NCBI GenBank assembly: GCA_963796105.1
Contig: CAWCKJ010000003.1
Span: forward strand, 448,001 to 512,000
Source of the DNA: a candidate division FCPU426 bacterium
GTDB taxonomy: Bacteria; Oederibacteriota; Muellerivitia; Muellerivitales; Muellerivitaceae
Direction of reading: 5' to 3'
Length of the DNA: 64,000 bases
How positions within the stretch are numbered: position 1 is the stretch's first letter; the number at the start of each line of letters is the position of its first letter. Below, piece by piece: positions 1,186 through 37,256 of the stretch. The notes beneath the pieces were generated by a model that was not told where the DNA came from, did not search any database, and saw only the letters and a program-made list of their open reading frames with translations. A program made the position numbers and the translations under genes.

Positions 1186-1518
1186 TTAAATTTGCATTTG
1201 AATAACAGATTGATACGCCTCTAACATTTTATTACGTATTTGTATTGCATATTGCAAAGAAATGCTAGCTTTTTCCATTGATATAATTACATCATGAAGA
1301 TTATCAGTACCACCGCTTGCTATATTTTTTATTGAATCATTGGCACCAACTTGACTAGCATTTAAATCATTTAAAGCTTTCTTCAATAAATCTTTAAAAT
1401 TAGCAGGAGAAACCTCCGCAACATTGTTCAAATTTGATTCAGTAAGAGGATTTGTAAAAGAAGGTAAAACTTGTGTTAATGATATCGGCATTTGAATTGG
1501 TTGAATTTCCATTATCAA
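1186..1518 (-). CDS. fliE: Flagellar hook-basal body protein FliE
   Basis: NLHDVIISMEKASISLQYAIQIRNKMLEAYQSVIQMQI C-terminus; between flgC and fliF. Confidence 0.95.
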   Translation of the reverse strand: MIMEIQPIQMPISLTQVLPSFTNPLTESNLNNVAEVSPANFKDLLKKALNDLNASQVGANDSIKNIASGGTDNLHDVIISMEKASISLQYAIQIRNKMLEAYQSVIQMQI

Positions 1519-1538
1519 ACCTTAAAAAGTATTCTAAC

Positions 1539-1994: not shown

Positions 1995-1996
1995 GG

Positions 1997-10614: not shown

Positions 10615-10663
10615 TGAGATGTATCAAAACGTCCTAATAAACATTTAAAAACTAAAAATGAAA

Positions 10664-11965: not shown

Positions 11966-12121
11966 AAACTACCTTTCGATCATAATATTAAATACAAGCC
12001 ACCGTTTTTGCCGAATCGGCGAAAGTGAATAAATTTAAGAGAATTATTAAAACCGACGCAGTATAAAGAAAAAATCAACTTCCTGCAACGATTTACTAAT
12101 TCAGTAAGTTAATATCATTAA

Positions 12122-12451
12122 TCAGATGTTAAGAATTTCTTGAATTTCTTCGACTAGTTTAGTCTTTGGGTGGGCCCCAACAAGCTGTTTAACCATTTGT
12201 CCGTTTTTAAAAAACAATAATGTTGGAATACTTCTAATATGAAAATCAATTGAGACTTGCTGATTTTCATCCACATTTACTTTAGCAATTTTAATTTTTC
12301 CTTCATACTCCTTTGCCAACTCATCCAGCAAAGGTGAGACCAACCTGCATGGGCCACACCATTCCGCCCAAAAATCAACCAGAACTGGTATTTTAGAATC
12401 CATTACATCATTTTTAAAATTTGCATCAGTTGTGTGAACGGTGTTTCCCAT
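12122..12451 (-). CDS. trxA: Thioredoxin
   Basis: VLVDFWAEWCGPC, IRSIPTL; likely ATG at 12451 after GAGGAAG. Confidence 0.96.
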   Translation of the reverse strand: MGNTVHTTDANFKNDVMDSKIPVLVDFWAEWCGPCRLVSPLLDELAKEYEGKIKIAKVNVDENQQVSIDFHIRSIPTLLFFKNGQMVKQLVGAHPKTKLVEEIQEILNI

Positions 12452-12760
12452 AACTTCCTCCGCCTTTTCGAATTCCATATCAGTTATATTAAAATTATCA
12501 ATCAAAAGTCTAAGTTTCGCTCCATTGAGTGTCAAGGACAGATAATTGTTTGTTGATATAAAATTTAAGCATTATCCCTTTGGATGTAATATTCTCGAGA
12601 CCCTAGCTTCATAATATTAAACAAAAATTTTACTAAACCTTTAATCGTTTTCGGATTTCAATATTTTGTTGGATTTGATCAAGAAAAAACGCCAACTCAC
12701 AAGAACCAGCAATTCGAAAAATAAATATCACAGCACAATTATGTTTAGAAATATTATTTT

Positions 12761-15700
12761 TCAGGGCAAGGCTAATAATTTGTAAATCTTTTGAATTTTT
12801 CTATTGGTAGCACTTATTTCTATTCTAAGATAGTATAATCCTCCAGCCACTTTTCCGCCGTCACGATCATGAAAATCCCAATATATAAAAGAATTTCCAT
12901 TTGAAAGACCACCTCCCCATGCAATTTTCCTGAAAGCAGTCGTAAAAACAGACCATTCGACGGTATAGGAATCAGAATAATAAATTTTTACGGTTACTGG
13001 TCTTGTTCCATCACCAGGATTTGGATAGGGTCGCGAAATTGAAATAGACTCGGATTTTGGCGTGAGGATTAATGTAGGCGTATTGGTCAATGTAATTGCA
13101 AAAGTTTTTGTTGCAGTATATGTCGGTGTATTTGTATAGGTATCAACATAAGTGTTTGTTGAGGTAAATGTAGTTGAAGGAGTTTGAGAGGGTGCAAAAG
13201 TGAAGGTATAAGTCGGAGAATAAGTCATTGTACTTGTTGAATTACCTGTCGGGGTATTGGTGGATTTAGGCGTTGATGTTAGTGTCGGTGTAATGGTGGG
13301 GGTGGAAGTCGGAGTGCTGGTGGAAGTAGAGGTGTTGGTTAAGGTAAGGGTTGGTGTCATCGTAGAAGTCGGCGTGGATATATTCGTTGGCGTAAAGGTG
13401 TGTGTAGAAGTCGATGAAGGCGTAAGAGTTATTGTTAGCATCGGTGTCGGAGTATTGGTGGATGTGTTGGTCTGAGTATTCGTGGAAGTGGACGTGAAAG
13501 TCATAGTTGGGGTACTGGTGGTCGTATTCGTGGGCGCCTGAGTCTCTGTAGGTGTATTCGTAAGGGTAGGCGTAATGGACGAGGTGGGGGTATTGGTGGG
13601 CGTAGAAGTCGGGGTATTGGTTGGGGTAGAAGTAGGAGTATTCGTCGGTGTTGGGGTGGAGGTTACCGTAGGAGAAGGAGTTGGTATGGGTGTTGGAGTC
13701 CCACTAGGAGTGGAAGTCGGCATCGGTGTGGGAGTTTTAGTGGATGTGGGTATTGGGGTATTACTGGATGTGGATGTCGGAGTATTCGTGGGCGAGGGTG
13801 TGGGGGTCACGGTTGGTGTGTCAGTAGGTGTCGATGTCAGGGTCTTGGTCGGGGTGATAGTGGGCGTATTGGTGGGCGACTGGGTTCCGGTCGGCGTATT
13901 CGTGGCTGTGAGAATAATGGTAGGTGTGGGTGTCATAGTGGGTGTGGGAGTAGTCGTTGGCGTTGGAGTCGGCGTTCTCGTTAGGGAAAGGGTTGGCGTA
14001 TTCGTAGGTGTTGGAGTTGGTGTAGTTGTTTGAGTGGGGGTCGGAGTATTCGTAGGCGTGGAGGTACTGGTAGGTGTCGAGGTTGATGTTATCGTAGGAG
14101 TATTGGTCGGAGTCGGTGTGGAAGTCCTAGTCGGTGTGGTAGTTGGCGTATTGGTTGTTGTGGGCGTATGCGTTGGAGTCGGGGTAGTCGTTAGAGTGGG
14201 AGTCGTAGTATTCGTAGGCGTAGAGGTAATGGTAGGTGTCGGGGTTGAGGTCATCGTAGGAGTATTAGTCGGAGTTGGTGTGGAAGTCCTGGTCGAGGTG
14301 GGGGTCGGTGTGGTAGTTGGCGTATTGGTTGGGGTGGGCGAATGTGTTGGCGTATTCGTAGGTGTTGGAGTTGGTGTGGTTGTTGAAGTGAGAGTCGGAG
14401 TATTCGTAGGTGTAGAGGTAATGGTAGGTGTCGGGGTTGAGGTCATCGTAGGAGTATTAGTCGGAGTTGGTGTGGGAGTCCTGGTCGAGGTGGGGGTCGG
14501 TGTGGTAGTTGGCGTATTGGTTGGGGTGGGCGAATGTGTTGGTGTATTCGTAGGTGTTGGAGTTGGTGTGGTTGTTGAAGTGAGAGTCGGAGTATTCGTT
14601 GGCGTGGGGGTAATGGTAGGTGTCGGGGTTGGGGTCCTCGTAGAAGTATTGGTCGGAGTCGGCGTGGGAGTCCTGGTCGGGGTGGTAGTTGGCGTATTGG
14701 TTGGGGTGAGCGAATGCGTTGGCGTATTCGAAGGTGTTGGAGTTGGTGTGGTTGTTTGAGTGGGAGTCGGAGTATTGGTCGGGGTCGAAGTTGGAGTATT
14801 GGTATAGGTAAGGGAAGGCGTCGTCGTAGGAGTGGGCGTGGATGTATTCGACGGCGTCTTGGTTGACGTGGAAGTGGGCGTCGGTGTGGGAGTTTTAGTG
14901 GGCGTGGGTGTTGGGGTATTGCTGGATGTGGACGTCGGAGTATTCGTAGGCGTGAGGGTAATGGTAGGTGTCAAGGTTGGGGTTGTCGTAGAAATATTGG
15001 TCGGAGTCGGCGTGGGAGTCCTGGTCGGGGTGGCGGTCGGGGTGTTCGTAGGGGTCGATGTAGAAGTCCTGGTGGGGGTAGGTGTTGGTGTCGTGGTAGA
15101 CGTCGGGGTTCTTGTGGCAGTTAGTGTTAGTGTGGGAGTAGATGTTCGCGTATAAGTGTTTGTCGCTGAACTCGTTATTGTATTGGTTAGAGTTCGGGTG
15201 GCCGTGAAAGTGTTGCTAGAGGTGATAGTCGGAGTACTTGTGAATGTTCGGGTTGGTGTTATCGTTGTGGTACGGGTTGCTGTGGAAGTAAAAGTAGATG
15301 TTGAAGGGCAGTTTAAAATAGCCGTTCGAGTGGGACTAAGTGTAATAATAGGTGTACAGGTCGCGTTTCCACATGGCGAATTGATATCATAAGCGTGCTT
15401 TACAGCCCAAATGGTATTAGCTCGCATATAATAGGGCGCACGAATATTGGTCAACCCAGTCATCCAAGCTTCTGGGGTTCGAAACCACATTTGCCCAGTA
15501 TTCCAAATGCTGTTGTATAGACTGTTCCCGATGGAAACAGCCTGGGTGAACATTCCTTCCTGAATCATCCCAGCCACTGCTCCCCAGGTCGTACCTACCC
15601 AGACTTCCTCACCCTGCGAGGTGCTGGTGTCAGCTGTTCCGCTGGTGGTCATGACGTTGACAGCGCCATGCGCTCCCGAATCGAATTTGGCCCAATTGTT

Positions 15701-17704
15701 ATCATGCACAACCTGCCAGGCACTGACAGCGTGCGCGGCAGGCACGACATCCCCAAGCCCACAAGCTTTGGCGTACCATTCCCCGCATAACTGATCAGTC
15801 ATGATTCTCGCAACCCCGGTGACCCCTCCTGCACCGCTTCCAGTGTCGATGTTGTAATAATTACCGGTCGAATTCCAGAGGTTCGTTTCAAAGTCGGATT
15901 GGCCGAGTGTAAGCCAGGATTGGTAAGTGTTGGTCAGACTGGTGTTCCCTTCTGAAATTGCGATTTGCAGGGCCGCCTCGCAGGCCGCCAAATAAAGGCT
16001 TCCGCAATAGGCGGTTTCTCCTGTCAGGCCCAGGTTGTCGTAGGTTTGGTCGATGCCATTTGATATGGGAAGGTTATAGGTAACACCGCTCGAAATGCAT
16101 TGGCTATGCACCTTATTCATGGATACCTGAATAGCGGGCCAGCAGTAATTCAAAAAGGTCGAATCGCTTTTGCCAGTGATTTCCCAGGCCCTGTATGCCA
16201 TTAAAACCAATTTTGAGTTTAAATCTTTCCAAGTGGTGGAATCCCGGTAAGTATAGTCATTCCACGCTGTAAAGACGTCGTTCAAGCCCCCTATATCGTG
16301 AGCGCAAGTGCCGATAGCCGCGGGCCTTGGCAGTGCCTGAGCACCTGCCACCTGGGTAACGCTGTCGCAAAACTGTTCGATTTCTTGTTTGTCAATATTG
16401 GGCCAGTTCATTGCCAAGGCCCAGGAGCTGTAAAAACGCACATCCGAAGTTCCATAGGTGGAATAGGCATAACATTCCAGGCTGCTGAACATGTCCGGGC
16501 CGCTGTCATACATGGCGGAACCGTACTGACCAGCCTCCCAGAGCGTTCCAGCAACGACATAGTAATAAAGCTCGTTGAATAGCATCTGCTTATACCAATC
16601 TGGATAAGGCCCTGAAAGAATACCGCTTTGCCATGAATCTATAGAAGATTCCCAGGTCGTATAATTATTCAGGGCGTCATTGGCGATGGAGAAGGAATTC
16701 AGGCCTGTTTTTCCGTAAGGGCGAGTGTACTCCCGATACCATTGGGCGCCCGTTCCTGGCTTGGCCAGAGGAATATCCCAAGCCAAGACGATGGGAATTT
16801 TAACTGATTGTCCAGGCGATAGGGTGACCTTGATTGCAATTCCACCGATGGTATTGGAACCCACTGAATCGTTCAGGAGGCCAGCTGATCCGAATGCTGT
16901 TTCAAGGGTGCTTACCGCCGTAGCGGATTCATAGGTCACAGTTACACCCGTTGAGGACTGTGTAGCTAGAGCAAATTCACCCTGGGTAGAAGTAGTAGCA
17001 TTCCCGTTATTTCTAGTCAGGATCAAACCTGTATTGTTTCCAGATGTAGTCACTGCCGCATTGGTACCTCCAAAGGTATTATCCCAAGTCAACATGATTG
17101 CCACGTCTGTTGATGTGCAAGTGTTATTGGAAATATCCCATTCATAAATACCTTCTGGAAAACTGCTTCTTGTGTAATCGCCCGGAATGAGCGGTGAAAA
17201 TTGTGTAACTCTTGCTTTGCAGGGAAAATCAGAACCGGCGTAGTCAACCCAAGACTTTGGATATAAGGAATAATAGGTGGCCTGTCCAGTACCCAGGGCT
17301 GTGCCATTTAGACGATAGGTAACCGCAGATTGTCCTGAAGGTTTTTGGTACATATAAAAATGGCAATTACTGTCAACCGAATAGGGAGCGTTATTAGTCC
17401 ATGTTGTGGGTGCGTTAGCAACATTTAGACGTTGTAGGTAAAAATCACCTGTAAAATTCCACGTATAAGAGCCTGCCCCAAATCCGCCTGCAGGAGACCC
17501 GTCAAGATAACCACCAGCGTTAATATCACGACTCCAAGCTTGAGAAGGAATATTTGTTGCTGAAAAACCAGGAATATAAATTAAATAAAAAAGCAGAACC
17601 ACTAATAACCTAAATGGTATTGGCAAATAAGAATTTCGAAAATTAAAAATAAGATTGAGAAACATCAAAGCATAACCACTCCAATTTGAAATAGCCGAAA
17701 GCAA
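12761..17704 (-). CDS. Secreted GH116 beta-glucosidase-like protein + Thr/Pro stalk + T9SS-CTD-like domain
   Basis: [52 protein letters not shown] (GH116 motifs); long TxTx stalk; C-terminal PYPNP...WD...[10 protein letters not shown]. True start uncertain. Confidence 0.85.
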
Positions 17705-17853
17705 TCGTTTATCTAAAATTTACCACAAAAAGGTGTTTTGAGTGGATTATCGTTGTGATGAAACCGGTTTTATTGGCTGAAAGAAGTTATTAAACCTAAC
17801 TAACACCTTAAACAGCTTTTTAGCACCATGATTTAAGCAAAATATTTTTCTAA

Positions 17854-20800
17854 TTATTGTTCGACAAGAATCTTTAACGTTTGCTTGGCGATGATTTTCC
17901 CGGTGAGATCCTTCTGTTCCACCTTGGCGATGTAGAGCCCGCTTGAGATTCCTGCGGCATTCCAGGTCACCCTGCTTGTTCCTCCCGCGCCTTTCAGCTC
18001 CGTCACCAGCTCTCCCGCCAGGTCATAGATCCTCACCGTCAGGTTGATCCCAAGATTTGAGGCCTGGAACTCCACTTGGCTGAATCCGGAAGTTAAGGGG
18101 TTCGGATAGGCCCAGACTTTCGGTACCGTCTGTTTCGGATTGTTCAACACCATCACCGATGTCACGATCACCGTCTCCCCGCCTTTTCCGTCGGTGGAGT
18201 GCACCTCGATGAAGTATTTCCCGTTCGGCACCACCGCCCCGCTTGAGGAATATCCCGTCCAAGTGGCCGTCACGCCGTTATTGGTCGTAATGATCAGGTT
18301 CCCATCCGTCGGTGATCCCGGCTCCAAAACCGTCCCTGACAGCTTCACCCCTGTGATCACCGTCCCTTGTGGGTCCTCCACCACGCTGTAGAGCGTGTCC
18401 ACGATCTCTCCAGCCTCGTTGTAGATGTCGATCGTCACCTTCTCCAACGACCTGCTCACCACCACGTTCAATACCACGCTCTTATCCACCCCGAAGGAAT
18501 CGACATTGTCCACTTTCACGTAATAATCACCATTGGGCACCGGGTTCCCGTTCTGGTCCGTCCCGTTCCACACCGTGATCTGGGTATTCTGGTCATATAT
18601 CAGGATGGGGTCATTCAGCCCATTAATCAGGTCCCCGTTCTTCAACTGCAGGTCCACCAAGGGCTGGGAATATTGGGTTACCAACAGTGTCTTTACCAGT
18701 TCTCCTGCCTCGTTATATACCCCGATCTTCACCGTGTAGCTCCCTGTCACCATTAATGTGGCGCAGGAACTCAATGGTGAGATTCCCGGATAGTTTAAGA
18801 CCGCGCAGTTCACAATGGGTCCCGCGGGCGTGAAGCTGTTAATCGACACCGTATAGGTCAGTTGGTAGTTCCCTGGGGTAAGAGTGGGCAATGTCCAGTT
18901 CATCATGGTCACCCCGCCTGAAACGGTGGTTACGGCCGATGTTCCTGCTGGTGAGACCCCGAAGGCCGTGAAAGTGCAGTTGGGAGGCAGTTGGTCCTGC
19001 ACCACTACCCCGGGAGCGTTGGCGTTGGAGACATTCACATTCAAGGTATAGGTCACCATATCCCCCGAGGAACCTGTTGATTCTGACTCCTGTTTTTGCA
19101 AGGCCAATACCGCGGCAGGCGTGGGGGTGGGAGTAAAGGTCGCCGTGGGGGTAGGTGTCAGGGTATTAGTATTAGTGGGTGTATTCGTGGCTGTAAGCGT
19201 ATTCGTGGGAGTGGAAGTGTTAGTAGGCGTCCTGGTGGAAGTAGGAGTAGGCGTATTGGTAGGAGTATTGGTGTTAGTCGGGGTGTTGGTATTGGTGGGG
19301 GTATTGGTGGCCGTATAGGTGTTGGTAGGAGTAGAGGTGTTGGTAGCGGTGGGAGTATTAGTGGGCGTATTGGTGTTGGTCAGGGTATTGGTGGGAGTAG
19401 GGGTCGGGGTATTAGTTGGCGTGTTAGTGGGGCTATAGGTATTCGTGGGTGTGGAAGTCTCCGTTGGAGTGTTGGTGTTGGTGGGAGTGTTAGTGGATGT
19501 TGGAGTGGGGGTATTAGTCGGCGTGTTCGTGGGTGTGTTGGTGTTAGTGGGGGTGGAAGTGTCGGTAGGGGTATTGGTGTTTGTAAAGGTGAAAAGAGGC
19601 GTGTCAGTGGAGGTATCGGTTGGCGTAGGAGTGGGTGTTTGTGTGGGAGTAGATGTGTAAGTGGAGGTGGGAGTAATTGTAGGGGTATTAGTAGCTGTAG
19701 GTGTTGGGGTGGAAGTGGGTGTGGAAGTCGGGGTATTGGACGGAGTTGATGTCGGTGTGGGGGTTGGGGTTGGTGTCGGTGTATTCGTGGGGGTATTAGT
19801 CGGGGTGGGTGAAGACGTCAGGGTCGGAGTGACTGTAAAGGTGTTCGTGGGGGATGTTGTCCCAGTCGAGGTGTTGGTTGGGGTTGGTGTAACGGTTGGC
19901 GTGGGTGTCGGAGTGTTCGAGTGTGTACTCGTGGGGGTATTGGTAGGTGTCGGCGAGGGTGTCAGCGTTGGGGTGGGTGTCGGGGTATTTGTGGGCGTAG
20001 AGGTAGGTGTATTAGTGGGTGTAGGGGTGGATGTGGTCGTAGGAGTAGGGGTCGGGGTATTCGTCGGAGTCCTTGTGGGTGTAGAAGTCGGCGTCGGCGT
20101 GGGAGTCGTGGTAGGTGTTGGCGTCGGCGTATTGGTAGGCGTGTTCGTTGGGGTATTCGTGGACGTTGGAGTAGGTGTCACAGTCGGAGTGGGTGTAGGA
20201 GTAGACGTCGGGGTCTTGGTCGGGGTGATGGTAGGAGTATTCGTGGGAGACTGAGTTCCTGTAGGCGTATTGGTTGGAGTCGGTGTGATGGTTGGCGTGT
20301 TGGTGGGGGTCGGAGTCGGGGTTGTGGTGGGTGTAGGGGTATTCGTGGAGGTAGGAGTGGGTGTTGGTGTCCTAGTCGGAGTAGGTGTCGGGGTGGTCGT
20401 GGGGGTGGGTGTAGGCGTATTCGTAGGGGTAGGCGTCGGGGTTCTCGTTGGAGTAGGGCTCGGGGTAGTTGTAGGAGTGAGTGTAGGAGTATTCGTAGGG
20501 GTAGGGGTTGGGGTATTGGTGGGTGTAGGGGTCGGGGTGGTCGTTGGAGTGGGAGTGGGCGTCCTCGTGGGGGTTGGGGTGGGCGTATTAGTGGGTGTAG
20601 GAGTTGGTGTCGTTGTTGGAGTGGGTGTTGTCGTATTGGTAGGTGTTGGTGTCGGAGTCCTCGTAGGAGTGGATGTCGGCGTCGTGGTTGGAGTAGGCGT
20701 GGGCGTATTGGTCGGGGTGGGTGTCGGGGTATTCGTCGGCGTGGGCGTGGGAGTCGTCGTCGGGGTTGGAGTCGGGGTAGGCGTTGGCGTCCGAGTCGGT

Positions 20801-23800
20801 GTATTGGTCGGCGTGGGTGTGGGTGTAATAGTAGGTGTAGGAGTTGGAGTAGGTGTCGGTGTCCGAGTCGGAGTTATGGTTGGAGTGTTCGTGGGCGACT
20901 GGGTCCCGGTTGGAGTATTCGTGGGCGTCGGGGTAATAGTTGGCGTGTTGGTGGGGGTTGGAGTCGGGGTTGTGGTCGGTGTGGGAGTCGGGGTAGGGGT
21001 GGGCGTTCTTGTGGGCGTATTGGTAGGAGTGGGTGTCGGAGTGGTTGTCGGTGTTGGTGTCGGGGTGTTAGTAGGGGTAGGTGTGGGAGTTCTCGTCGGG
21101 GTAGGCGTTGGAGTTGTCGTGGGTGTGGGCGTCGGCGTATTTGTGGGTGTATTGGTGGGTGTCAGGGTAGGAGTATTCGTCGGGGTTCGGGTCGGGGTTG
21201 GAGTCGGCGTGTTAGTAGGTGTCGGAGTGGGTGTATTGGTCGGAGTCGGGGTGGGAGTGGTTGTCGGTGTCGGAGTAGGCGTTCTTGTCGGGGTCGGCGT
21301 GGGAGTATTCGTGGGGGTGGGTGTCGGGGTTGTGGTCGGAGTGGGTGTCGGAGTGTTAGTAGGCGTGGGAGTAGGAGTCCTGGTTGGGGTCGGTGTTGGC
21401 GTCGTAGTGGGGGTTGGAGTCGGGGTGTTCGTGGGAGTGGGAGTTGGAGTATTCGTTGGTGTTGGGGTCGGGGTCCTGGTTGGAGTGGGAGTAGGCGTTA
21501 CAGTCGGAGTGGGGGTAGGTGTGTTAGTGGGAGTCGACGTGGGAGTAGTTGTGGGTGTGGGTGTTGGAGTCCTAGTCGGGGTTGGGGTGAGCGATGGTGT
21601 CGGGGTGGGGGTAGGAGTATTCGTAGGAGTTGGTGTCGGGGTGTTGGTGGGGGTAGGGGTCCTGGTTGGCGTGGGTGTCGGGGAAACGGTGGGTGTCGGG
21701 GTCGGCGTGGAGGTATTCGTGGGGGTGGGTGTTGGTGTCCTTGTTGGGGTTGGAGTAGGTGAGAGGGTCGGGGTGGGTGTCGGGGTAGGGGATGGTGTGG
21801 GAGTCGGGGTATTCGTGGGAGTAGGAGTTGGGGTTCTGGTCGGGGTGTTAGTCGGTGTCGGGGTAGGGGTATTCGTTGGGGTCGGGGTGGGTGTACGAGT
21901 GGGGGTTGGGGTGGGTGAAGGTGTCGGAGTGAGGGTTGGGGTATTTGTTGGTGTGGGTGTCGGGGTCGGAGTCCTAGTTGGAGTTGGGGATGGAGTAGGT
22001 GTTGGAGTATTAGTAGGAGTCGGCGAGGGTGTCCGAGTGGGCGTATTGGTCGAGGTTGGAGTGTTAGTTGGAGTATTAGTACGGGTTGGAGTGGGAGATA
22101 CCGTTGGGGTATTAGTTACTGTAAATGTATTAGTATAGGTATTCGTATACGTAAAAGTTGGAGTAGAACACTGAAGAATGGCGGTAACGGAATTAGACGT
22201 CACAGCAGCCATTCCATTTGCCGTGATTGAGGATGCATTCACAAACGTTTGAGAAGAACTTCCCCCGCAAGCAACTGTTCCCCACCATGTAATTGCGCCA
22301 GATAAATCATAGACTGTTGCGGGAAAAGCCCAAGAAAGTGTGGAACCGTTCGTGAAATTTATGCCGGCCACACCGCCGGCAGCAGTGGATTCCCCGCCAT
22401 AAGTAATTCCGGTAGGCACAGGGTCTTTCAGGACTGTGTTCACAACTGCGTCAGCCTTGAAAAGGCTTAAATTTGAATAGTAATTGGTACCCGCAGTTCC
22501 GTCACCTTGCCAGCCATATGACGTTGACATGGAACAAATACAACTATCAACAGCCGTATCGGTCCAGTTTAGCGAAGCAACTGCCGAGGGATCCCCTTTG
22601 GGCCAAATGCTGACACTAAAGACCATTTGGCCCCCTACATCCTGCACGCTGACATTCATGGTGTACCAAACCCCTGCAGTAAAAGCAAAAGGTGTCCCAT
22701 TAAAGGTAATTCCCATTCCGGTACCGGGTAATGCGCCGTCTTTCTGGATAAATAAATTCGCAGGATTGGGATCCAACGACATTCCTATGGTATAAGCAAC
22801 CGTGGTGGCCCCACAAATTCCATAAGCAACAACCATATGGGCGTCAGCTTGGGGCGATGCACCCGCAACTCCAGAAGCGGTAGCAGGAACCTGTAAATCG
22901 CCCTGGATGATGTAGGGTTGCCCACTGCAAAGACTAATGGGACTGTTTCGAAGCATCATGGGATAAGGCCCGCAAGACTGTCCGCCGACTGTAGAATCAG
23001 TAAAAACATCAAGGTAATGATTTCCTTTGGAATCGGTATTCACAGTCCAAGTCCCAGCTCCCTGGCATGTCCCATTCGTTCCTACCAAGGTATAATTAGT
23101 AGTACCGTCATAACCTAGTCCCGAACCGGTCGTTGAACCGGTTCCGATATTGTCGTATGAATCATAAAATTGCAAACTGGCTTGCTGGATATGGTAAAAA
23201 AGAGTGTAAGTTTCCGTTTGGCCATTTGACAAATTAGAAAGAGACTGGCTTTTCATTAAAGTAAATCCCGCCGAGGTAGAATTGGCCGATACCGTATTGG
23301 TATTTACCGTTCCTGAGGAGTTTTTATAACCCGCGGTGTTTGAAATAGCTCCGGTAGTTGTGGCCCTCACCAACATCCACACCTCGCCCTTAGCATCCGC
23401 CCCTGAATCAGCAGGTAGAGTCCAGGAAACGGAAGACCCAGCTGCGGTCCCCGCGTCTCCACCGTCAGGGCTCAAAGAAACCAGAGTTGTACCGGCAGGA
23501 ACAGTATCCGTTATAACGTAACTGGAAGAATCGTTTACATAATCATAGTCAATAGCAAAAAGGAGAAGGTCCCCAACTGCGGCTTGCGTTCCTTGGACTG
23601 ATTTTATCGCAGTTGAGTTAAATGCCGGGATGGGTACGGTTACTGTGGCAAACCCATATATTCCTCCTGCCGTTACAGGTTGTCCACAGGTGTAATAGCT
23701 GGTTTTCCCTTCGACCACAACATCATAGGTTCCCCCGTAGGCTGCGTTTGGAATGGTTTCCACAAAAGTCAGTGGACCGCATGGATGAGCTTGGTCGTGC

Positions 23801-24282
23801 ATATCCCAGCTCGCTTGAGTTCCGCCAGTAAATGCCCCAAATGCTTGGTCTTGTTGCTGGGTTCCATTTCCATCAATCCACAGATAGCTTCCATTCACCG
23901 GGATTGAACATTGAGTAATAGTCGTTGGGCTTGGAACAGTCGCGTTGTTGTTTACTTGCATTACCAATTGAGTGTCATTGTATGGATCTGGGCAATAATT
24001 GATAACAACCGTAACCGGTTCTGTAGGGCTGTTTAAGCTGGGATCCAATATGGTAACAATAGGATTAGCCCCATTTTGAGTTTGCGCATAGGCATTAGAA
24101 GAAAATAAAAAAGAAAAGAGAAAAAGCGTTACCAAAAAAATATAAAAATAACACTTAAAATAAGATTTCTGAATAAAGTTGTCATTTCTCCGATTCAAGG
24201 TATTCCTTTCAATATATTTATAATAATGCAATTTTCTTGCCATTACAAAGTCACGTAAAGCCTTTAAGTAATAACATTTCAC
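17854..24282 (-). CDS. Giant secreted protein: DUF11-like repeats, Pro-Thr stalk, two FlgD-Ig-like domains, T9SS-CTD-like tail
   Basis: Signal-like [27 protein letters not shown] / LKDPVPTG / VQDQLPP motifs; two YNEAGE.V..L...W.G....G..VPNG.Y units; AYPNP...IYDLAGELV...SSGLYI. True start uncertain. Confidence 0.8.
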
Positions 24283-24373
24283 GCTAAATAAAAGAATTTT
24301 AGGATCATTTGAATCAGAAAGTCATTTGTTCGACTTTATGTCAAATTAACAACAGCTGATTTTATTTATTCAT

Positions 24374-24414
24374 AAAAAAACCGGTGAAAACCATATCGGA
24401 TTTCACCGGTTTTT
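24374..24414. terminator. Intrinsic terminator hairpin
   Basis: AAAAACCGGTGAAA...TTTCACCGGTTTTT just downstream of the 24453-31394 gene. Confidence 0.8.
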
Positions 24415-24452
24415 AAATTAGTATCTGTACGAAGGATTTAAAAAAAGTTTTT

Positions 24453-27400
24453 TTATTTTAATACCAGAATTTTGTATACCTTATCCATTGTTTGAAGCCC
24501 ATACATTTCAACTCGAAGGTAGTATAAACCATCCGCCACTTGCTTACCGTATTGGTCTTTTAAGTCCCAAACAATCAAACCAGTATTCGTTATTGTTATT
24601 TCGCCACCCACAATCTTTCTCAAGGCCAAGCTAAATACGGACCATTTCACCACAGTCGTTCCCGGCACTGAAATCTGCAATGATACCGGCCCGTTCACCA
24701 CAGGGTTGGGATATGGCGGAATACAAGTAGGCTTTGCCACAAGAGTCGGAGTTAACGTAACTGTCGGTGTAAAGGTTTGTGTTGGCGCTGCCACATCGAC
24801 AACAGCTCCTGCGACCGGTAATCCGTTCACTCGCACCGTTTGACCGTTTGTTCCGGTGGCTCCCGTCGCGCTGACAATGTAAGTCCCTGACGCCGAGGAC
24901 GAGAAGCTGGTTACAACCATGTAGGTGTTTCCATTCGATCCCAATGTATTGTTAATGGTAAAGGTGGCCGCTCCAGAACCCAATATTCCTGTGGCGATCG
25001 GCACCCCGTTTTCCAATAGTGTTACAGGTCCCATATCCGCAGGGTTTCCGGTTCCCGTCACCGTTAGCGTTAGGCTGGTTAGGGTAACCGTGCTGGAGCT
25101 TGGATTAGTGAATTGGACTTGGAGAACCGTCACTCCCGTCGCTCCGGGTATCTGGGTCGTCGGAGACGATGAAACTTGATTAGCCTGGACTGTGACCACT
25201 GTACTCGTGCTTGTGGGCGTAATGGTTGGCGTCGAGGAAAACGTACAGGTCGCTGTTGATGTCCATGTGGTGGTGGATGTGAAAGTCATCGTTGGGGTAG
25301 TCGTGGGTGTGTTTGTCAAAGTGTGGGTGAAAGTATTCGTTGGGGTAAAGGTGAATGTGTTCGTAGCTGTGGAGGTATTTGTTAAAGTCGGAGTCGCTGT
25401 GTATGTCGGTGTAACTGTAGGGGTATTCGTCGGCGATTGCGTCCCAGTCGGAGTGTTGGTAGGCGTATAGGTAATGGTTGGTGTATTGGTCCAGGTGGAT
25501 GTGAAAGTCTCAGTCGGGGTGTTGGTTGGCGTGGAGGTGGGTGTCCAAGTGGGCGAAAACGTATTTGTCGGGGTTAGAGTCGATGTAAGGGTAGGTGTAT
25601 AAGTTAGGGTCAAAGTAGAAGTAAAAGTAGGAGTGGATGTTGGAGTGGGCGTATTAGTGAATGTTGGTGTCAAACTCTTAGTTGGGGTAATAGTGGGTGT
25701 ACTTGTAGGCGACTGCGTTCCAGTAGGAGTGTTTGTGGGGGTATTGGTGATGGTCGGTGTATTTGTTTGGGTCGGGGTAAAGGTCGATGTCGGGCTGTTT
25801 GTGGGTGTTGAAGTCAATGTGTGTGTGGGGGTATTGGTGCTTGTGTATGTATTAGTAGGCGAGTTGGTGGATGTATAAGTCGGTGTATTGGTTCTGGTGT
25901 TCGTAGGAGTACCAGTCAGCGTGTTTGTGGGTGTGCTTGTAAACGTTGAAGTAGAAGTAACTGTATGTGTACTCGTTAAAGTTGGTGTGGAAGTATGTGT
26001 TGGTGTATTGGTTGCCGTATTCGTTGGGGTAGCTGTATTGGTCATAGTTATCGTGTTTGTTGAAGTCGGCGTCGATGTATATGTCGAAGTGATGGTTGGC
26101 GTATTGGTGGGTGACTGAGTACCTGTTTGAGTATTTGTGGGGGTTAAAGTAATTGTCGGCGTATTTGTTCTCGTTAATGTTGGCGTCAGTGTAGCGGAAT
26201 AAGTAGGTGTTCCCGTTGGTGTGTTTGATGGGGTTGATGTCGATGTTTTAGTAGGCGTTAAGGTGTTGGTTAAAGTATTCGTCGAAGTTGAAGTCGGCGT
26301 ATTCGTCAGTGTCGAGGTGGAGGTTCGCGTTGGAGTTATGGTAGGCGTATTCGTCGGTGAAGTCGTGCCTGTTGTGGTGTTGGTTGATGTCGGTGTAACA
26401 GTAGGTGTAGCCGTATTCGTTGGGGTGTTTGTCCTTGTTAATGTCGGCGTCGGCGTCCCGCTATAAGTGGGCGTTCCCGTAGGGGTGTTCGTAACTGTAT
26501 TTGTTTGGGTGTTAGAAGGTGTAGAAGTAAATGTCCTAGTTGGCGTAAGGGTGCTGGTAGAAGTATTCGTCGAAGTCGAAGTAGCCGTTGATGTCGGTGT
26601 ATTTGTCAGTGTCAGGGTCGAGGTTCGCGTTGGTGTTATGGTAGGCGTATTCGTCGGTGAAGTCGTGCCTGTTGTGGTGTTGGTTGCTGTCGGTGTAACA
26701 GTAGGTGTAGCCGTATTCGTTGGGGTGTTTGTCCTCGTTAATGTCGGCGTCGGCGTTCCGCTATAAGTGGGCGTTCCCGTTGGTGTGTTTGATGGGGTTG
26801 ATGTCGATGTTCTAGTGGGCGTTAAGGTGTTGGTTAAAGTATTCGTCAAAGTTGAAGTCGGCGTATTCGTCAGTGTCGGAGTGGAGGTTCGCGTTGGAGT
26901 TATGGTTGGTGTATTTGTCGGTGAAGTCGTGCCCGTTGTAGTGTTGGTTGCAGTCGGTGTAACAGTAGGTGTAGCCGTATTCGTTGGCGTATTGGTTCGT
27001 GTTAATGTCGGCGTCGGCGTTCCTGTGGGCGTATTTGTAGCGGTATTTGTTTGGGTGTTAGAAGGTGTAGAAGTAAATGTCCTAGTTGGCGTAAAGGTGC
27101 TGGTAGAAGTATTCGTCGAAGTCGAAGTAGCCGTTGATGTCGGCGTATTTGTCAGTGTCGGGGTCGAGGTTCTCGTTGGTGTTATGGTAGGCGTATTTGT
27201 CGGTGAAGTCGTGCCTGTTGTGGTGTTGGTTGCTGTCGGCGTAACAGTAGGTGTAGCCGTATTCGTTGGCGTATTGGTTCGTGTTAATGTAGGAGTCGGC
27301 GTTCCTGTAGGCGTATTTGTAGCGGTATTTGTTTGGGTGTTAGAAGGTGTAGAAGTAAATGTCCTAGTTGGCGTAAGGGTGCTGGTAGAAGTATTCGTCA

Positions 27401-30400
27401 AGGTTGGAGTCGCCGTCAATGTCGGCGTATTTGTCAGTGTCGGGGTCGAGGTTCTCGTTGGAGTTATGGTAGGCGTATTTGTCGGTGAAGTCGTGCCCGT
27501 GTTGGTATAAGTAACGGTATTAGTTACTGTTGGAGTATTAGTTGAAGTGGCGGTATTAGTGGGTGTGTTAGTTCTCGTCAGTGTTGGGGTAAGGGTAAAT
27601 GTATTTGTCGGCGAAGAGGTTGCTGTGTTGGTTTGTGTGTTTGTCCTTGTTGGTGTTTGGGTTTGCGTCGCTGTATTTGAAGGCGTAATTGTTTGAGTGT
27701 TTGTCGGTGAAGAGGTCGCTGTGCTGGTCTGCGTGTTTGTCCTTGTTGGTGTCTGGGTTTGCGTCGCTGTATTCGTAGGCGTAATTGTTTGAGTGTTTGT
27801 CGGCGAAGAGGTCGCTGTGCTGGTCTGAGTGTTTGTCCTTGTTGGCGTCTGGGTTAAAGTCGCGGTATTCGTGCTTGTATTAGTTTGAGTATTTGTCCTT
27901 GTTGGTGTTTGGGTTTGCGTCGCTGTATTCGTAGGCGTAATTGTTTGAGTGTTTGTCGGCGAAGAGGTCGCTGTGCTGGTCTGAGTGTTTGTCCTTGTTG
28001 GCGTCTGGGTTTGTGTCGCGGTATTCGTAGCTGTATTAGTCTGGGTATTTGTCCTTGTTGGTGTTTGGGTTTGCGTCGCTGTATTCGTAGGCGTAATTGT
28101 TTGAGTGTTTGTCGGCGAAGAGGTCGCTGTGCTGGTCTGAGTGTTTGTCCTTGTTGGCGTCTGAGTTTGTGTCGCGGTATTCGTAGCTGTATTAATCTGA
28201 GTATTTGTCCTTGTTGGTGTTTGGGTTTGCGTCGCTGTATTTGTAGGCGTAATTGTTTGAGTGTTTGTCGGAGAAGGGGTTGCTGTGTTGGTCTGAGTAT
28301 TGGTTCTTGTTGGCGTCTGGGTCTGTGTCGCGGTATTCGTAGTTGTATTAGTCTGAGTATTTGTTCGTGTTGGGGTTTGGGTTTGCGTCGCTGTATTCGT
28401 AGGCGTAATTGTTTGAGTGTTTGTTTGAGTACTCGTTGGCGTAATAGTTAAAGTCGGGGTCTTTGTATAGGTTGCTGTATTGGCGGGCGGAATAGTGGCG
28501 GTATAGGTAGGAGTACCTGTCGGAGGATTATTCGTTAAAATACAAACCTCATCTACCCAGAAAGTCACCGAAGCGGTGTTGTTAGACTCGGATTCCCACA
28601 TGAGACCCGTAACTTGAGTTAAAGCCTGCGCCAAAGTCGGCGGGTTGGTCATCGACCCCCAAGATTCCCGGGTTATGCTTGAAAGCGGAACGGTATAAAG
28701 CGTCCACGCTGTGCTTGGAGAATCAATGCTATACCCATAGTCGTCACTGTCTCCCGCATCAATTGTGGGATTTTTCACCTCAAAACGGAAGGTTGTAGCG
28801 CTAGATGAAGCTTTAAAATAGAAACTAAATCCATTACAGAAATATGCCAAATTCTCGTTCGTACCTGAATTCGGTATCAATCCTTCAAGTGCAAATCCAT
28901 CCGTGCTTGAATTAGGGGACGTTCCATATTCCATAGCACAATAATTTGTTCCATTGGCACCAGGGGTTTGTAATGAAGCCGTTCCATTCGTTCCGTTTCC
29001 CCAATGCGTGGTGCTCATCAAGCCACCGAAAGTATCGTATAAAGTTTGTTGTTCGTTATTATCGAAAACATAGCATTGCTGGGTAGGAGTGATCGTAGCT
29101 GTAGGGCCGCCAGTATTTGTTTTAGTTGGAGTTTGTGTAGCCGTCGGACAGGTTCCAATAAATTGAAGATCATTGAAATAAAGAGTCGCGGTAGAACCCG
29201 CAGTAGCGAAATTGACTTCCACGTCAATTTCCCAAATATTAGATTGCGTGACACCTGTGAAGGAAAATGACGACAAGGGAATACTTACAGCCGTCCAACT
29301 ATTTGTCAGCGACGTGGCAAAGGTCACAGCACTGCTTTTGTTGTTGCTTGAATCGACCAAGTAAACATAAGCCGCAGAAATCCCAGGACTTGCCGTCGAG
29401 CTTTCAATCGCAAAGTCCAGGCAGCTTTGATTGGCAACATTGATATAACATTTGGAATTGCCAGTAAAAGACCCCGCCCAGTTGTAGCCCACCTCAGCCC
29501 AGTTCGCTGTTCCAGTCGAAGCCATGCTCATGACCAAACCTGTCGTGGCTCCGCTGGCGGCATATGCCGCCGCAGTGGACTGGGTGATATTAGTGGAAGT
29601 TGAAACAGGGGATCCCCACGTTGAAGCAGCCACTCCATCGTAAGTTACGCTTCCGTTATAGAGCGTGGTCCCGCAACCACTGCACGGCGCAGGAGTATTC
29701 GTATATGTGGGTGTATTGCCGATTGTATTCGTACGAGTAGGGGTTGAAGTGGCCGAGCAGGTCCCTACGAAGGTTATATCGTTCATATAGAGAGTTGCCG
29801 CAGTTCCAGCAGTTGAATACAGTGCTTCCACATCAAGTTCCCAGGTATTGCTCGTGACGAATGTAGAAGGGTATGTAAATGAAGACATCTGGACGTTTAC
29901 GGATGTCCAACTATTGGTGATGGTTGTGGATAAGGTCACTGGATTGGATTTTGTGTTATTAGAATCCACCAAGAAAATGACCACAGCGGCGATTCCTGGG
30001 CTGGCAGTTGAACTCTCAATAGCGAAATCCAAACATGTTTGAGCGGCGGCATTGATATAGGCCTTGGAATTACCCGTATAAGAGCCGGCCCAGTTATAAC
30101 CTACCTCGGCCCAGTTCCCAGTTCCCGTCGAAGCCATACTCATAACCAAACCTGTTGTCGCTCCGCTCGCGGCATAAGCCGCCGCTGTGGACTGGGTAAT
30201 ATTTGTTGAAGTCGAAACCGGCGAGCCCCAAGTCGAAGCAGCTACCCCGTCATAAGTCTCACTTCCGTTGTAAATTGTCGTCGCACAGCCGCTGCAAGGA
30301 GGAAGTGTAGGTGTTATGGTAGGAGTACTGGTTTTAGTTGGAGTAAATGTAGGTGTCGCTGTAGGACCATTCGTAAAAGTCCGGGTAGGAGTGTTCGTGT

Positions 30401-31394
30401 TCACAGGCGTAGAATTGCATCCCGGTACCTGTCCGCTCGTCGAAGGGTTTCCAGGAGGCGCCGCTTCACTCGGAGAATAACTTCCGCCGTTCAACCCAAT
30501 TGTGACTGGAGTGTTTGATTCCCAGCTAGTGATTTGAAAATATTCCGTCCCCGAGTAGGCGCTGCTGCCGTACCAAAAATTCGGAAGACTGCTGCCAGTA
30601 TCCCGGGTGATGGACGTGAAAGGGCCAGAAGAACTTGAGCCATAAGCCACTGATTTGATTGGAATAATCGTATCCAGGAACATAAGCGGGTTCCATCCGC
30701 TTGACGCACTGTTAGCCCATTCATAGGCGATGTTTCCAGTCGTGTTATCAAAGGTAACTGCGGCTTGTCCAGTCAAGGGGCATTGAACAAAATACCACTC
30801 AACAGTCGAATTATCACGTCCGGATTGATCGGTGTTACTTGGAAAGCTTGCGTTATTTGATAAATAATTATAAGCGGTTAGAGAAATGTCCAAGTGGTAT
30901 GACCCGTTCCAACAGTTATTTAGGTTAACTCCTCCCACCGGGCATTCATCCACAATCATGACGGTACAAGCCCTGGCATTCGAAGTGTTCGTTAATGCCG
31001 CACAGGCGCCACATACAACCCCTCCTTCGCCACCACCGTTTCCACCAGACGCTGATGTATCCCCAAAGTCATAACTGTCAATGGCGGCAAAATAGTTCGG
31101 ATCATAAGTACCAGTGGGGTAACCACAAGCTGTTAAAGTAGGAGCTGTGTAATAGGTCGGCTGGTTCTCTTGGTATATCTGCTGTGTGTCTCCGGGGCAA
31201 AACTGAGGAGTCGCTATAAGGGTAGGAATGGCTACCGCGGAAGTGGACGCAGTGTGGATTGTTTGCGCAGACAAAAATGTTACGTTATTCACCCAAAATA
31301 TAACAGCTAATAGGGTGAAAACCCCAAAATGAAGATCAAATTTTCTTTGGAAAACCGGTTTCATAACGCCAACTTCTTTTATATTGTTTTTCAA
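24453..31394 (-). CDS. Giant secreted protein: expansin-like head, three CBM-like domains, Thr-rich stalk, T9SS-CTD-like tail
   Basis: TYY...ACGY...FAAI...CGAC...VMIVDECP...HLDIS (DPBB/expansin); two near-identical [12 protein letters not shown] domains; GFSFYFK...[10 protein letters not shown] (CBM11/CIA30-like); PYPNP...[10 protein letters not shown]. Confidence 0.8.
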
Positions 31395-31706: not shown

Positions 31707-32327
31707 ATGTTAAAAAATAAAAAAAGTTTTACCTCCTTTTTCCTAATGATAACTCTGATATCCACTTCGATTGCTTACATAGGTGGTTGTGGCAACTCCG
31801 GTCAAGTACAGCAAGTTGACAAGCCCGGCGGTTTAACCCTTGGGGATAAAGCGGCTGATTTTAGCTTAATGGATGAAAATGGGCATTTGTTCAAATCATC
31901 CGAGGTCCAACCCGGATGGTTCCTCATCCTTATTTTTTACCGCGGTTACTGGTGTGGCGATTGCAAGAATCAGCTTTGGAATCTCAAGCAGGATTACTCC
32001 AAGTTCATGACAGCGCGTGTCGCCGTTGCCGCAATTAGCACAGACTCGATTGAAGACTCAGCTGACTTCAACCAAAATTGGCGGTTCCCTTTTCCGCTTC
32101 TTTCCGATCCAAATCTCCACTTGATAGACGCTTACGGCCTTCGCCATCCCCACGGGCACGGGATTCACGACATCAGCCATCCATCGATGATCATCATCGA
32201 TCCGCAAAAAACAATCCAATTCAAATATGTCGGGAAGAATCCCCAAGACCGCCTTCAAGACGACGAGATACTTTACGTCATCCAACAAATCAGAAACAGA
32301 CTCGCGAAAACAACAAATCAAAAATAA
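31707..32327 (+). CDS. Peroxiredoxin-like (AhpC/TSA) protein, probable lipoprotein
   Basis: Hydrophobic N-terminus ending IGGC; GDKAADFSL, FYRGYWCGDC, FPLLSDP. Confidence 0.85.
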   Translation: MLKNKKSFTSFFLMITLISTSIAYIGGCGNSGQVQQVDKPGGLTLGDKAADFSLMDENGHLFKSSEVQPGWFLILIFYRGYWCGDCKNQLWNLKQDYSKFMTARVAVAAISTDSIEDSADFNQNWRFPFPLLSDPNLHLIDAYGLRHPHGHGIHDISHPSMIIIDPQKTIQFKYVGKNPQDRLQDDEILYVIQQIRNRLAKTTNQK

Positions 32328-33430: not shown

Positions 33431-33465
33431 ATCATTACCCCCGGATTAAAAATTTTATAATTTTC

Positions 33466-37062: not shown

Positions 37063-37256
37063 GGCAAGGCTCCTTAGATGTTGATTGTCGGGACTCATAT
37101 TAGATTTCAAGAGTCCGCATCAGTATGACACGGCTCATAATTTCTCAGGACAAAAATTAAAATATTTTTTCGCGGGGCGAATTTTCAGTTGAAATCTTCA
37201 TTTGAAGTTTGAAAGGAATGGGATATCAATCGATTGTCGGGATCATTCGGTAGGGG

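Follow-up and report, generated by a model that had tools for sequence, protein, structure and literature searches.

Three adjacent genes with a common plan

The window, meaning the whole stretch of 64,000 nucleotides that was analysed, carries on its minus strand three adjacent genes, designated A (12761-17704, 1647 aa), B (17854-24282, an ORF of 2142 aa) and C (24453-31394, an ORF of 2313 aa). As described in a preliminary description of this DNA, all three encode a hydrophobic N-terminus, heads that differ from gene to gene, a Thr stalk and a C-terminal tail. In A, the signal-like N-terminus is followed by a GH116 head, the stalk and a type A-like tail. In B, it is followed by an unknown beta domain, a weak DUF11 copy, a legume-lectin-fold domain and the stalk, behind which lie DUF11, two FlgD-Ig-like domains and a type A tail. 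In C, the expansin comes next after the signal-like N-terminus; three CBM-like modules of beta-sandwich type precede the stalk, and an Ig-like domain stands between the stalk and the type A-like tail. Each N-terminus contains a hydrophobic stretch of 11 residues (Kyte-Doolittle mean 2.7-3.0).

The array is bordered by conserved flanks, downstream by trxA, secD and secF (9655-12535, minus strand) and upstream by an AhpC/TSA-family gene (31707-32327, plus strand). It is syntenic within the family, with an identical A-B-C order in the relative genome G053, and the GH116-stalk-tail architecture was present in 19 of 20 fetched relatives. The head of a flagellar cluster, consisting of part of fliF with fliE, flgC and flgB (1-2425, minus strand), lies outside the system. 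The presence of fliF and flgBC had been reported, and all four genes exceeded their NCBIfam cut-offs. The flagella are incidental to the system, since all 13 genomes of four families are devoid of fliF and retain SprA, PorV and the tails.

A supposed fourth member at 61.9-64 kb had to be withdrawn. Gene D (61839-64000, minus strand, start outside the window) measures 932 aa as a whole ORF, with a 421-aa stalk and no tail, and ends at an IS-like terminus adjoining an IS481-family transposase. At present D is not a member of the tail family, and it is the IS that truncates it.

The stalks occupy 13052-15346 in A (residues 787-1551, 765 aa), 19099-22191 in B (residues 698-1728, 1031 aa, Pro 30%) and 25179-28535 in C (residues 954-2072, 1119 aa), all on the minus strand. 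Thr makes up 47-49% of each, positions of one parity being 90-95% Thr and those of the other 3-5%, with about 3 charged residues per 100. The stalk of C is composed of diverged in-frame tandem duplications with units of 48-282 bp. At 765-1119 aa, the stalks far exceed typical Pro/Thr cellulase linkers.

Heads of A, B and C

The head of A (15401-17500, minus strand) is of the GH116 beta-glucosidase family, with an E-value of 6e-135 to solved GH116 structures (5bvu/5npf) and of 7e-86 and 9e-49 to the GH116 Pfam models. Glu410 and the DQTYD motif (552-556) align with the motifs of the solved enzyme, which we take to provide the nucleophile Glu and the acid/base Asp of GH116. By sequence, A carries the N-terminal and catalytic domains of a GH116 protein in an intact head, and its activity is predicted.

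The concanavalin-A/legume-lectin-fold domain of B (22441-23187, minus strand) was recognised in a predicted model (pLDDT 66.7), which superposed on a legume lectin (Z 15.2, rmsd 3.4, 186 aligned) and on galactocerebrosidase (Z 16.4, rmsd 3.5, 186 aligned). As modelled, the head of B is a lectin by fold only and not an enzyme. The DUF11 copy behind the stalk scored 36 bits, above its cut-off, and the copy in the head was weak. Of the heads announced earlier, the GH116 of A, the expansin and CBM-like modules of C and the DUF11 of B were recovered, with the correction that the head of B itself has a lectin fold.

In C, profile and model identified an expansin of two domains, a double-psi barrel and a CBM63-like domain (30420-31214, minus strand). 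Profile matches included 7wvr (E 2e-43) and Bacillus subtilis EXLX1 (E 2e-23), and Foldseek ranks 1-12 for the model (pLDDT 74) were all expansins or expansin-family allergens. Asp149 and Asp169 are near-invariant among 38 homologues, and C possesses the double-psi barrel, the CBM63-like domain and the HLDL-type motif Asp of an EXLX expansin. On the binding face, judged by eye, C seems to retain a single Trp out of the three aromatics of the EXLX1 triad on domain 2. Between expansin and stalk (28515-30404, minus strand) lie three modules joined by short Thr linkers, one of them CBM11-like and the two others related to each other but of unclear family. The CBM11-like module matched PF03425 with E 8e-6 and 26.4 bits, just below the cut-off of 27, and CelH CBM11 with E 0.07; the two others gave only weak MAM/SGBP matches.

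The tail family and its probable cargo

The tails of A (12764-13048) and C (24456-24740), both on the minus strand, are of one subtype and 40% identical; that of C shows the invariant Gly-x-Tyr and terminal Lys. The base of B (17857-19095, minus strand) comprises the DUF11 and FlgD-Ig-like domains and the tail, which passed both PF18962 (39.2 bits, cut-off 27) and TIGR04183 (38.4 bits, cut-off 23). Scanned alone, the tails of A and C passed neither model, A having no match and C a faint one to FlgD_ig (E 0.09). The A-C alignment was strong (0 of 1000 shuffles reached its score), B-C was marginal (score 46, best shuffle 44) and A-B was not significant by itself (42 of 1000 shuffles). The tail that had been called shared is, by sequence comparison, two subtypes united by the genome-wide profile.

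This profile gave 125 matches, of which 123 were C-terminal, and none in the reversed control. At least 30 stalk residues were present in 99 of the 123 tail-ending ORFs and at least 1000 in 29, and the gene plan of A-C is not specific to this locus. In 65 of 97 tail proteins the stalk ends at most 130 aa from the C-terminus. All 43 aligned tails have the terminal Lys. The likeness to T9SS type A tails was supported, as the 43-tail profile matched the PorU CTD (E 1e-8), the translocon-bound CTDs 8glk_D and 8glj_D, and PorZ, all ahead of FlgD (7e-5); 28 of the 43 tails matched PF18962 at E≤0.01. Tails were found in 99 of 99 phylum genomes. None of the findings named beforehand as contradicting the description was made, although the tails of A and B align poorly as a pair.

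Among 40 tail-protein heads scanned, 7 were glycoside hydrolases, and the others included proteases, lectins and propellers. The locus had been described as a glycan display system; A and C do have predicted glycan-active heads, but the cargo is broader and, as judged from these scans, amounts to a general secretome. The reported absence of cohesin holds genome-wide (PF00963, 0 matches; one control above cut-off).

The stalk pattern occurred in 81 of 99 phylum genomes. The link between stalks and glycosylation enzymes appears loose by gene content: genomes of family f3 have 15-33 PMT_2 matches each yet lack the stalk pattern, and genome G043 has stalks with only 7 PMT_2 matches.

SprA, PorV and the search for other T9SS components

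A search for SprA, PorV, PorU and PorK-N had been proposed. It detected SprA and 19 PorV-family barrels; PorU, GldK-like, GldL, GldM and GldN proteins were not detected, in searches that mostly had no positive control. SprA (2017 aa) scored 207.6 bits with TIGR04189, against a cut-off of 200. Its gene adjoins lpxD/C/A and lptFG, and its homologues include named SprA proteins. The solved SprA was not matched in a single-sequence search, and the match to PF14349 was weak (E 0.007); the SprA sequence of this genome is divergent. SprA was found in 92 of 99 phylum genomes, only 7 of the 99 passing the TIGR04189 cut-off. In 17 sprA neighbourhoods, lptFG, a comF-like gene and a tail-bearing gene were recurrent, and no motor-like family was.

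All seven PorV-family barrels scanned passed NF033709; the PorV equivalog NF033710 was not passed (75 against 250), and the assignment to PorV is at family level only. One barrel matched the solved Flavobacterium johnsoniae PorV with E 5e-8. Ten of the 19 genes lie directly behind a tail gene, and none of the 19 adjoins A, B or C. Many paralogues have extra domains, OmpA and FN3 being confirmed for two. PorV was present in 99 of 99 phylum genomes.

When the conserved stand-alone PorV was modelled together with the C tail, the complex scored 0.71, the best of three controls scoring 0.00; runs shared at least 85% of contacts, with a partner pLDDT of at least 82. Of solved pairs, 116 of 157 attained the mark set for such models, as did 2 of 215 mismatched ones. 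Since similar complexes have already been solved and the prediction may reproduce them, it is a sign of resemblance rather than of binding. Within the model, the invariant Lys contacts the PorV residue aligned with F115, the contact that has been described for RemZ (PMC10994853).

GldL and GldM gave no match in the genome, in a search with no T9SS-positive control and in which strong divergence could be missed; GldM_1st (PF12081) was above cut-off in 0 of 99 phylum genomes, likewise with no such control. GldN gave no match, the controls being silent too. For PorP/SprF (PF11751) nothing exceeded the cut-off, in the genome or in controls, and one weak match (E 0.012) lay inside a PorV-family gene.

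Interpretation

The host lies outside the FCB group. The nearest named relatives of its SecD are from Ca. Goldbacteria (52-54%), which places it near Goldbacteria/FCPU426, a lineage for which similar Thr-Pro-rich proteins had been named beforehand, and sets it apart from Bacteroidota. Two papers state that the T9SS is absent outside the FCB group (PMC11285876, PMC12618676). The Ca. Goldbacteria cellulose degraders of Doud et al. resemble this host in SecD, flagellar genes, GH5/8/9/44 and CBM11, the latter numerous there, and a term search of that paper's main text returned no mention of a T9SS, threonine stalks or an outer membrane (PMC7031533).

The evidence tips slightly towards A, B and C being cargo of a reduced T9SS, probably exported through SprA and tethered uncleaved on PorV-type barrels as a predicted surface enzyme brush. 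Of the T9SS-like or novel route first suggested, the T9SS-like half is retained, with SprA and the 19 PorV-family genes, in a reduced rather than novel form. Export by such a system is likely because a SprA pore and a PorV shuttle occur with no detectable motor or anchoring enzyme; the proteins would be held above the surface, tethered uncleaved because the PorU sortase was undetected. Judging by the hydrophobic N-termini, Sec would export the proteins into the periplasm. Inside the SprA lumen, the folded tail may then bind a barrel of the PorV family, as modelled from genes that are present, and the pair would exit SprA with no recognisable GldKLMN motor, using another energy source or none. 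According to one report, leaving the translocon requires the motor in F. johnsoniae (PMC10994853), and a motor-less system here therefore needs an unexplained step. The tail would then act as anchor and the stalk as a spacer of at most 0.24-0.40 micrometre (an arithmetic upper bound), and display may occur far above the cell surface. O-glycans are probably added to the stalk by a subset of the numerous GT-C enzymes. Expansin and CBMs could loosen and grip cellulose, GH5/8/9/44 cargo encoded elsewhere in the genome could cut it, and GH116 could release glucose near the cell, giving a cellulosome-like outcome in the absence of cohesins.

We judge it rather improbable, though the strongest competitor, that the same SprA/PorV export ends in release, with the tail as export signal only and the stalk as a flexible linker or an extracellular glycoprotein gel holding enzymes near cellulose. 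Many type A cargo proteins of Bacteroidota are released (PMC10202324), some 120 cargo types would share 19 barrels, and there is no known anchoring chemistry, the PorU-type peptidase C25 (PF01364) being absent in 31 of 31 family genomes. Yet beyond the far end of the stalk A has the tail only and C the tail plus one Ig-like domain; released A and C would trail about 1000 residues with no clear gain. The same stalk is also placed beside a lipid anchor: 53 of 67 stalk proteins lacking the tail are lipoprotein-like, and in 46 of these the stalk directly follows the Cys.

A complete T9SS working as in Bacteroidota, its motor, ring and processing parts having diverged beyond the family models, seems unlikely. 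SprA itself barely passes its cut-off, and faster-evolving parts could thus be missed. The genome does encode four FGE-fold proteins, but the three scanned score 70-104 bits against a GldK cut-off of 350, and EgtB/SenA models give higher scores for the shortest two. The C25 search was positive in 8 of 99 phylum genomes, but three of these proteins score 52-72 against a PorU cut-off of 420, two having been scanned only partly. Four ExbB/TolQ-type motors exist besides MotA; against a complete system stand the lack of a GldM_1st match above cut-off throughout the phylum genomes and of any recurrent motor-like family in the 17 sprA neighbourhoods.

It is very doubtful that the tail serves as an all-purpose FlgD-Ig module binding cell wall, surface layer or another envelope polymer, with another export route and SprA/PorV otherwise employed: FlgD_ig was matched by 26 of 43 tails and the fold also occurs in probably non-exported proteins (two partners of sigma-70-type genes and one domain fused to PorV), but the profile matches are almost all C-terminal with an invariant Lys, T9SS CTDs rank above FlgD, and SprA, PorV and tails co-occur across the phylum, over half of the porV genes abutting a tail gene.

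The favoured reduced T9SS resembles that of Bacteroidota (PDB 6H3I, 8GLJ, 8GLK; TIGR04189, NF033709, TIGR04183) in a SprA/Sov translocon above cut-off, PorV-family barrels, hydrophobic N-termini, C-terminal tails of about 95 aa with a conserved terminal Lys and an LPS-bearing envelope. It differs in having no GldL, GldM, GldN, GldK-like or PorU match, no PorP/SprF above cut-off, 19 PorV-family paralogues and a host outside the FCB group. In Bacteroidota, porP/sprF sit directly behind type B cargo genes (PMC12618676), and type B anchoring is PorU-independent binding to the barrel (PMC9143113). As with SprB-SprF and PG1035-PorP, the barrel gene here often lies immediately downstream of the cargo gene, and anchorage by barrel binding would be analogous; unlike them, the tails are type A-like, the barrels PorV-like, and A, B and C have no adjacent barrel. 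The folds and catalytic-site motifs are those of the expansins EXLX1 (PDB 3D30) and Talaromyces 7WVR and of TxGH116 (PDB 5BVU), except that here they form fusions with a stalk plus a T9SS-type tail, with CBM-like modules appended in C.

In the PorZ-PorQ and PorU-PorV pairs of Porphyromonas gingivalis, type A tails stay uncleaved on the barrel. The PorU and PorZ tails are matched by our profile, but that attachment complex holds two machine parts, whereas about 120 cargo proteins would be held here. Clostridial cellulosomes and multimodular cellulases bring cellulases, CBMs and expansin near the cell on Thr/Pro-rich linkers; here, by contrast, there is no cohesin and each stalk bears one set of heads.

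A wider possibility, put forward tentatively, is that a whole non-FCB phylum has a T9SS core lacking motor and sortase, with SprA and a set of PorV barrels, the latter serving also as permanent anchors, and carries a brush of about 100 glycosylated Thr stalks of up to 0.4 micrometre that bear cellulases, expansins and lectins at their tips, amounting to a distributed cellulosome free of cohesins. If so, the translocon would seem to predate the gliding motor and to be able to work without it. If the reduced-T9SS reading is true, a machine thought to be confined to another bacterial group occurs here in reduced form.

Results

The three open reading frames claimed in the preliminary description were all found at their positions, on the minus strand: gene C (24453-31394), gene B (17854-24282) and gene A (12761-17704), in the order C, B, A with gaps of 170 and 149 bases. 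A hydrophobic stretch opens each protein, as had also been proposed. The stalks measure 765 (A), 1031 (B) and 1119 (C) residues and contain 47-49% Thr, which fills 90-95% of one residue parity and 3-5% of the other; their maximum span is 237-403 nm at 0.31-0.36 nm per residue, and as a coil they would be far shorter. The stalk DNA is made of in-frame duplications that have diverged. An assembly artefact is unlikely because the repeat copies are diverged (57-94% matches), the frames are open, and in G051, a genome of the same phylum, the orthologous expansin bears a 1032-aa stalk and the alternating-Thr pattern count is comparable (11,288 versus 13,316 in G000, the genome studied here). Promoter and terminator scans gave chance-level counts (20 versus 20.7 and 18 versus 20.7). 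Among listed sequencing runs, none of RNA contained the sequence and one of DNA did, with a share of 0.10.

The head of gene A is a complete GH116 domain (E 6e-135 against a solved enzyme), with which its Glu and DQTYD motifs, presumably catalytic, were aligned. The head of gene C is an expansin with two domains. A profile built from 38 homologues matched 7wvr (2e-43) and B. subtilis EXLX1 (2e-23), and the top twelve Foldseek matches of its model were all expansin-family structures. Two modules without an assigned family follow, then one CBM11-like module. In the gene B head no known enzyme domain was recognised; the fold of its central domain is that of legume lectins (Z 15.2, rmsd 3.4, 186 aligned, for a model of pLDDT 66.7 from 9 sequences). 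The B head had no match at 0.9 or above in the Atlas, and Foldseek with the whole head returned mostly generic Ig arrays.

Gene D, the putative fourth member, was rejected. It lacks the tail and its terminus is IS-like, and the sole Thr-rich trace between it and gene C is one stop-broken stretch of 36 residues. A paralogue of the D head (G000:C8:178282-194052) is likewise interrupted by transposase-like genes; it continues as a tailless stalked repeat protein of 2063 aa, and a gene of 1748 aa comes next. Window positions 42128-61866 form a dense mobile region with four IS21-type transposase/helper pairs (two of them an inverted pair of identical length), IS481/IS3-like transposases, an integrase fragment and an Rhs-core fragment (52386-54143). 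Short tandem repeats at 47201-48416 have open frames in several phases and no convincing protein family. Pyruvate:ferredoxin oxidoreductase and a dihydroorotate-dehydrogenase-like partner (32420-37110) fit an anaerobic fermenter.

The claim of a shared tail was upheld in part: pairwise alignment gave strong similarity for A-C, marginal similarity for B-C and none of significance for A-B, and tail B passed TIGR04183 and PF18962 while A and C failed both. A profile search started from the three tails matched 68 ORFs immediately and 125 finally, and reversed tails gave no matches; with 123 of the 125 matches C-terminal, the tail occurs genome-wide and not in the window genes alone. In an alignment of 43 tails (A-C plus 40 of the other 120, the 40 being picked for their resemblance to A and C), a Gly, a Tyr and the terminal Lys are invariant. 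Tail-bearing genes occupy 9% of G000, with stalk residues totalling 57,240. Five stalk genes (1549-1693 aa) with near-identical tails are clustered at G000:C11:5386-35216, a recent expansion. At locus L012 (G000:C12:79965-93555), each of two sigma-70-type genes has behind it a partner whose C-terminal domain is FlgD-Ig/tail-like; these pairs adjoin tail-gene/porV pairs and may provide the export system with a sensor.

The heads formed 61 clusters; of the 59 that lie outside the window, 40 were scanned. Seven of the 40 were glycoside hydrolases (GH5, GH8 twice, GH9, GH30, GH44 and GH62); others included proteases, lectins, propellers and Ig/FN3 arrays, and 12 had no Pfam match. The stalk is also present in 67 G000 proteins lacking the tail, 53 of which are lipoprotein-like by a crude rule, and about 50 lipoprotein-like proteins with the stalk immediately after the Cys would make up a second, N-anchored display class.

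The stalks may plausibly be O-glycosylated. G000 has 50 PMT_2 (GT-C) matches, 43 of them above cut-off, mostly multi-pass proteins of 700-870 aa (e.g. C8:5708-7912 and C14:87482-89641), and 30 of 31 family genomes have at least 19 each. A modest enrichment was observed within 5 kb of tail genes (17 of 50 versus 8.7 expected; 3/1000), and none of significance within 1 kb (139/1000). PMT_2 count as a strict correlate of stalks was unsupported: from family to family, the number of matches and the occurrence of stalks do not run in parallel.

G000 is 96.8% complete. The searches for SprA and PorV suggested in the preliminary description were both positive, and its remark that no cohesin was recognised agreed with a cohesin search of G000, which gave no match. 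A 2017-aa SprA is present (TIGR04189, 207.6 bits against a cut-off of 200), its gene neighboured by skp, lpxD, lpxC-fabZ, lpxA and lptFG. It is divergent, the nearest named relative being Firestonebacteria (29%), and a single-sequence search against solved structures gave no match. An iterative PorV search in G000 returned 21 matches, of which 19 were PorV-family barrels and two, FN3-only, were discarded. A tail gene directly precedes 10 of the 19 genes. All seven PorV-family proteins scanned passed NF033709 and none passed the PorV equivalog model. PorV-family pairs also lie within the flagellar cluster (G000:C3:423845-427589) and at its end (C3:401381-404943). For PorP/SprF, G000 gave one weak match only, within a PorV-family gene. 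Directly behind sprA lies a tail-bearing 1618-aa protein with weak FN3 matches (L008:13357-18213), a candidate plug or accessory part.

A conserved stand-alone PorV modelled with the gene C tail (alignments of 30 and 43 rows, respectively) scored 0.71, versus 0.00 for the best of three controls; at least 85% of contacts agreed between runs and partner pLDDT was at least 82. The mark for a complex was attained by 116 of 157 solved pairs and 2 of 215 mismatched pairs. Because like complexes are already solved, the model shows likeness to known complexes rather than binding. In it, the invariant Lys contacts the PorV residue at the position that F115 holds in the F. johnsoniae protein by alignment, a contact described for RemZ (PMC10994853).

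Tails and the PorV family were present in all 99 phylum genomes, which are kin and not independent cases, and fliF in 73. SprA was found in 92 of the 99 at E<=0.001, and above cut-off in just 7. The alternating-Thr codon pattern was present in 81, was highest in the genus of G000, and was seen in none of the 18 genomes of families f3-f7. Among 20 relatives' GH116 genes, picked from the best matches for long frames, the stalk was present in 20 and the tail at the end in 19, the other running off its contig. Expansin homologues were found in 21 of 31 family genomes. All twelve regions picked for a shared contig of expansin, GH116 or fliF matches carry one to five stalk-tail genes, with an ahpC or trxA-secD flank in 7, and genome G053 keeps the order expansin, lectin, GH116. 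The A-B-C locus is an array of cargo genes, conserved yet variable. Across 17 sprA neighbourhoods, lptFG recurred in 10, a tail-bearing gene behind sprA in 10, and a motor-like family in none. In three loci from families f8 and f9 (L134:4903-6471, L135:11915-13468, L147:12167-13684), a member of one gene family lies between lptFG and sprA; the two intervening genes scanned are PMT_2/PMT glycosyltransferases. The nearest named SecD relatives of G000 are Ca. Goldbacteria/Goldiibacteriota (52-54%), which are treated in PMC7031533 as FCPU426, with Firestonebacteria and Elusimicrobia as neighbours.

Discussion

Export via SprA/PorV in some form is very probable. It is somewhat more probable than not that the stalked proteins are cargo of a reduced T9SS and stay, uncleaved, on PorV-type barrels to form a surface brush. 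Barrel anchoring without PorU has a precedent in type B cargo (PMC9143113). Release of the cargo, rather than anchoring, is unlikely. In 46 of the 53 lipoprotein-like proteins the stalk begins within 40 residues of the Cys; the stalk thus tends to adjoin the anchor, and the tail end is therefore argued to be the anchor. Energy is the weak point of the reduced T9SS: in F. johnsoniae, cargo loading needs no energy but release needs the motor (PMC10994853 and PMC12635249). The flagellar motor was rejected as a needed source because SprA, PorV and tails persist in genomes without fliF (13 of 13 in families f4-f7, and G051).

That a full T9SS is present with its parts unrecognised is rather improbable. 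Divergent motor genes may possibly have escaped detection, as the Gld searches were run with no T9SS-positive control. PorU, GldM, GldN and GldL gave no match in G000, GldM_1st was above cut-off in none of the 99 phylum genomes, and three of four FGE-fold proteins, scanned against GldK, reached a top score of 104 against a cut-off of 350. Peptidase C25 (the PorU type) was found in none of 31 family genomes, and the same search was positive in 8 of the 99. The reduced system would work like a type A T9SS, but is not classed as canonical because motor and sortase were searched for and not found. A non-T9SS role for the tail is very improbable: the 43-tail profile matched the PorU CTD, two CTDs solved within the SprA-PorV translocon and PorZ, with FlgD ranking after. 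A few of the 123 C-terminal matches probably belong to other proteins, as their FlgD-Ig domains.

Each protein domain in the system belongs to a known family. No report of SprA, PorV or T9SS tails in Goldbacteria, FCPU426, Firestonebacteria or Elusimicrobia was found in main texts, few of them from subscription journals; the supplements of PMC7031533 may list T9SS-type domains. The parts consulted of PMC8542988, PMC11205867 and PMC12204202 held nothing on this lineage. In the literature, the T9SS is called exclusive to Bacteroidota (PMC12618676), or extended to FCB phyla and called absent elsewhere (PMC11285876); cargo ejection is said to depend on the motor (PMC10994853), and the system to derive from a machinery for gliding (PMC12635249). 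An SprA-PorV-tail set that spans the phylum, with no detectable motor or sortase, tests these statements of confinement, motor need and gliding origin. The set is a candidate for a minimal system, one open to reconstruction in F. johnsoniae mutants, and it suggests how the related Goldbacteria could bind cellulose, as PMC7031533 reports that they do.
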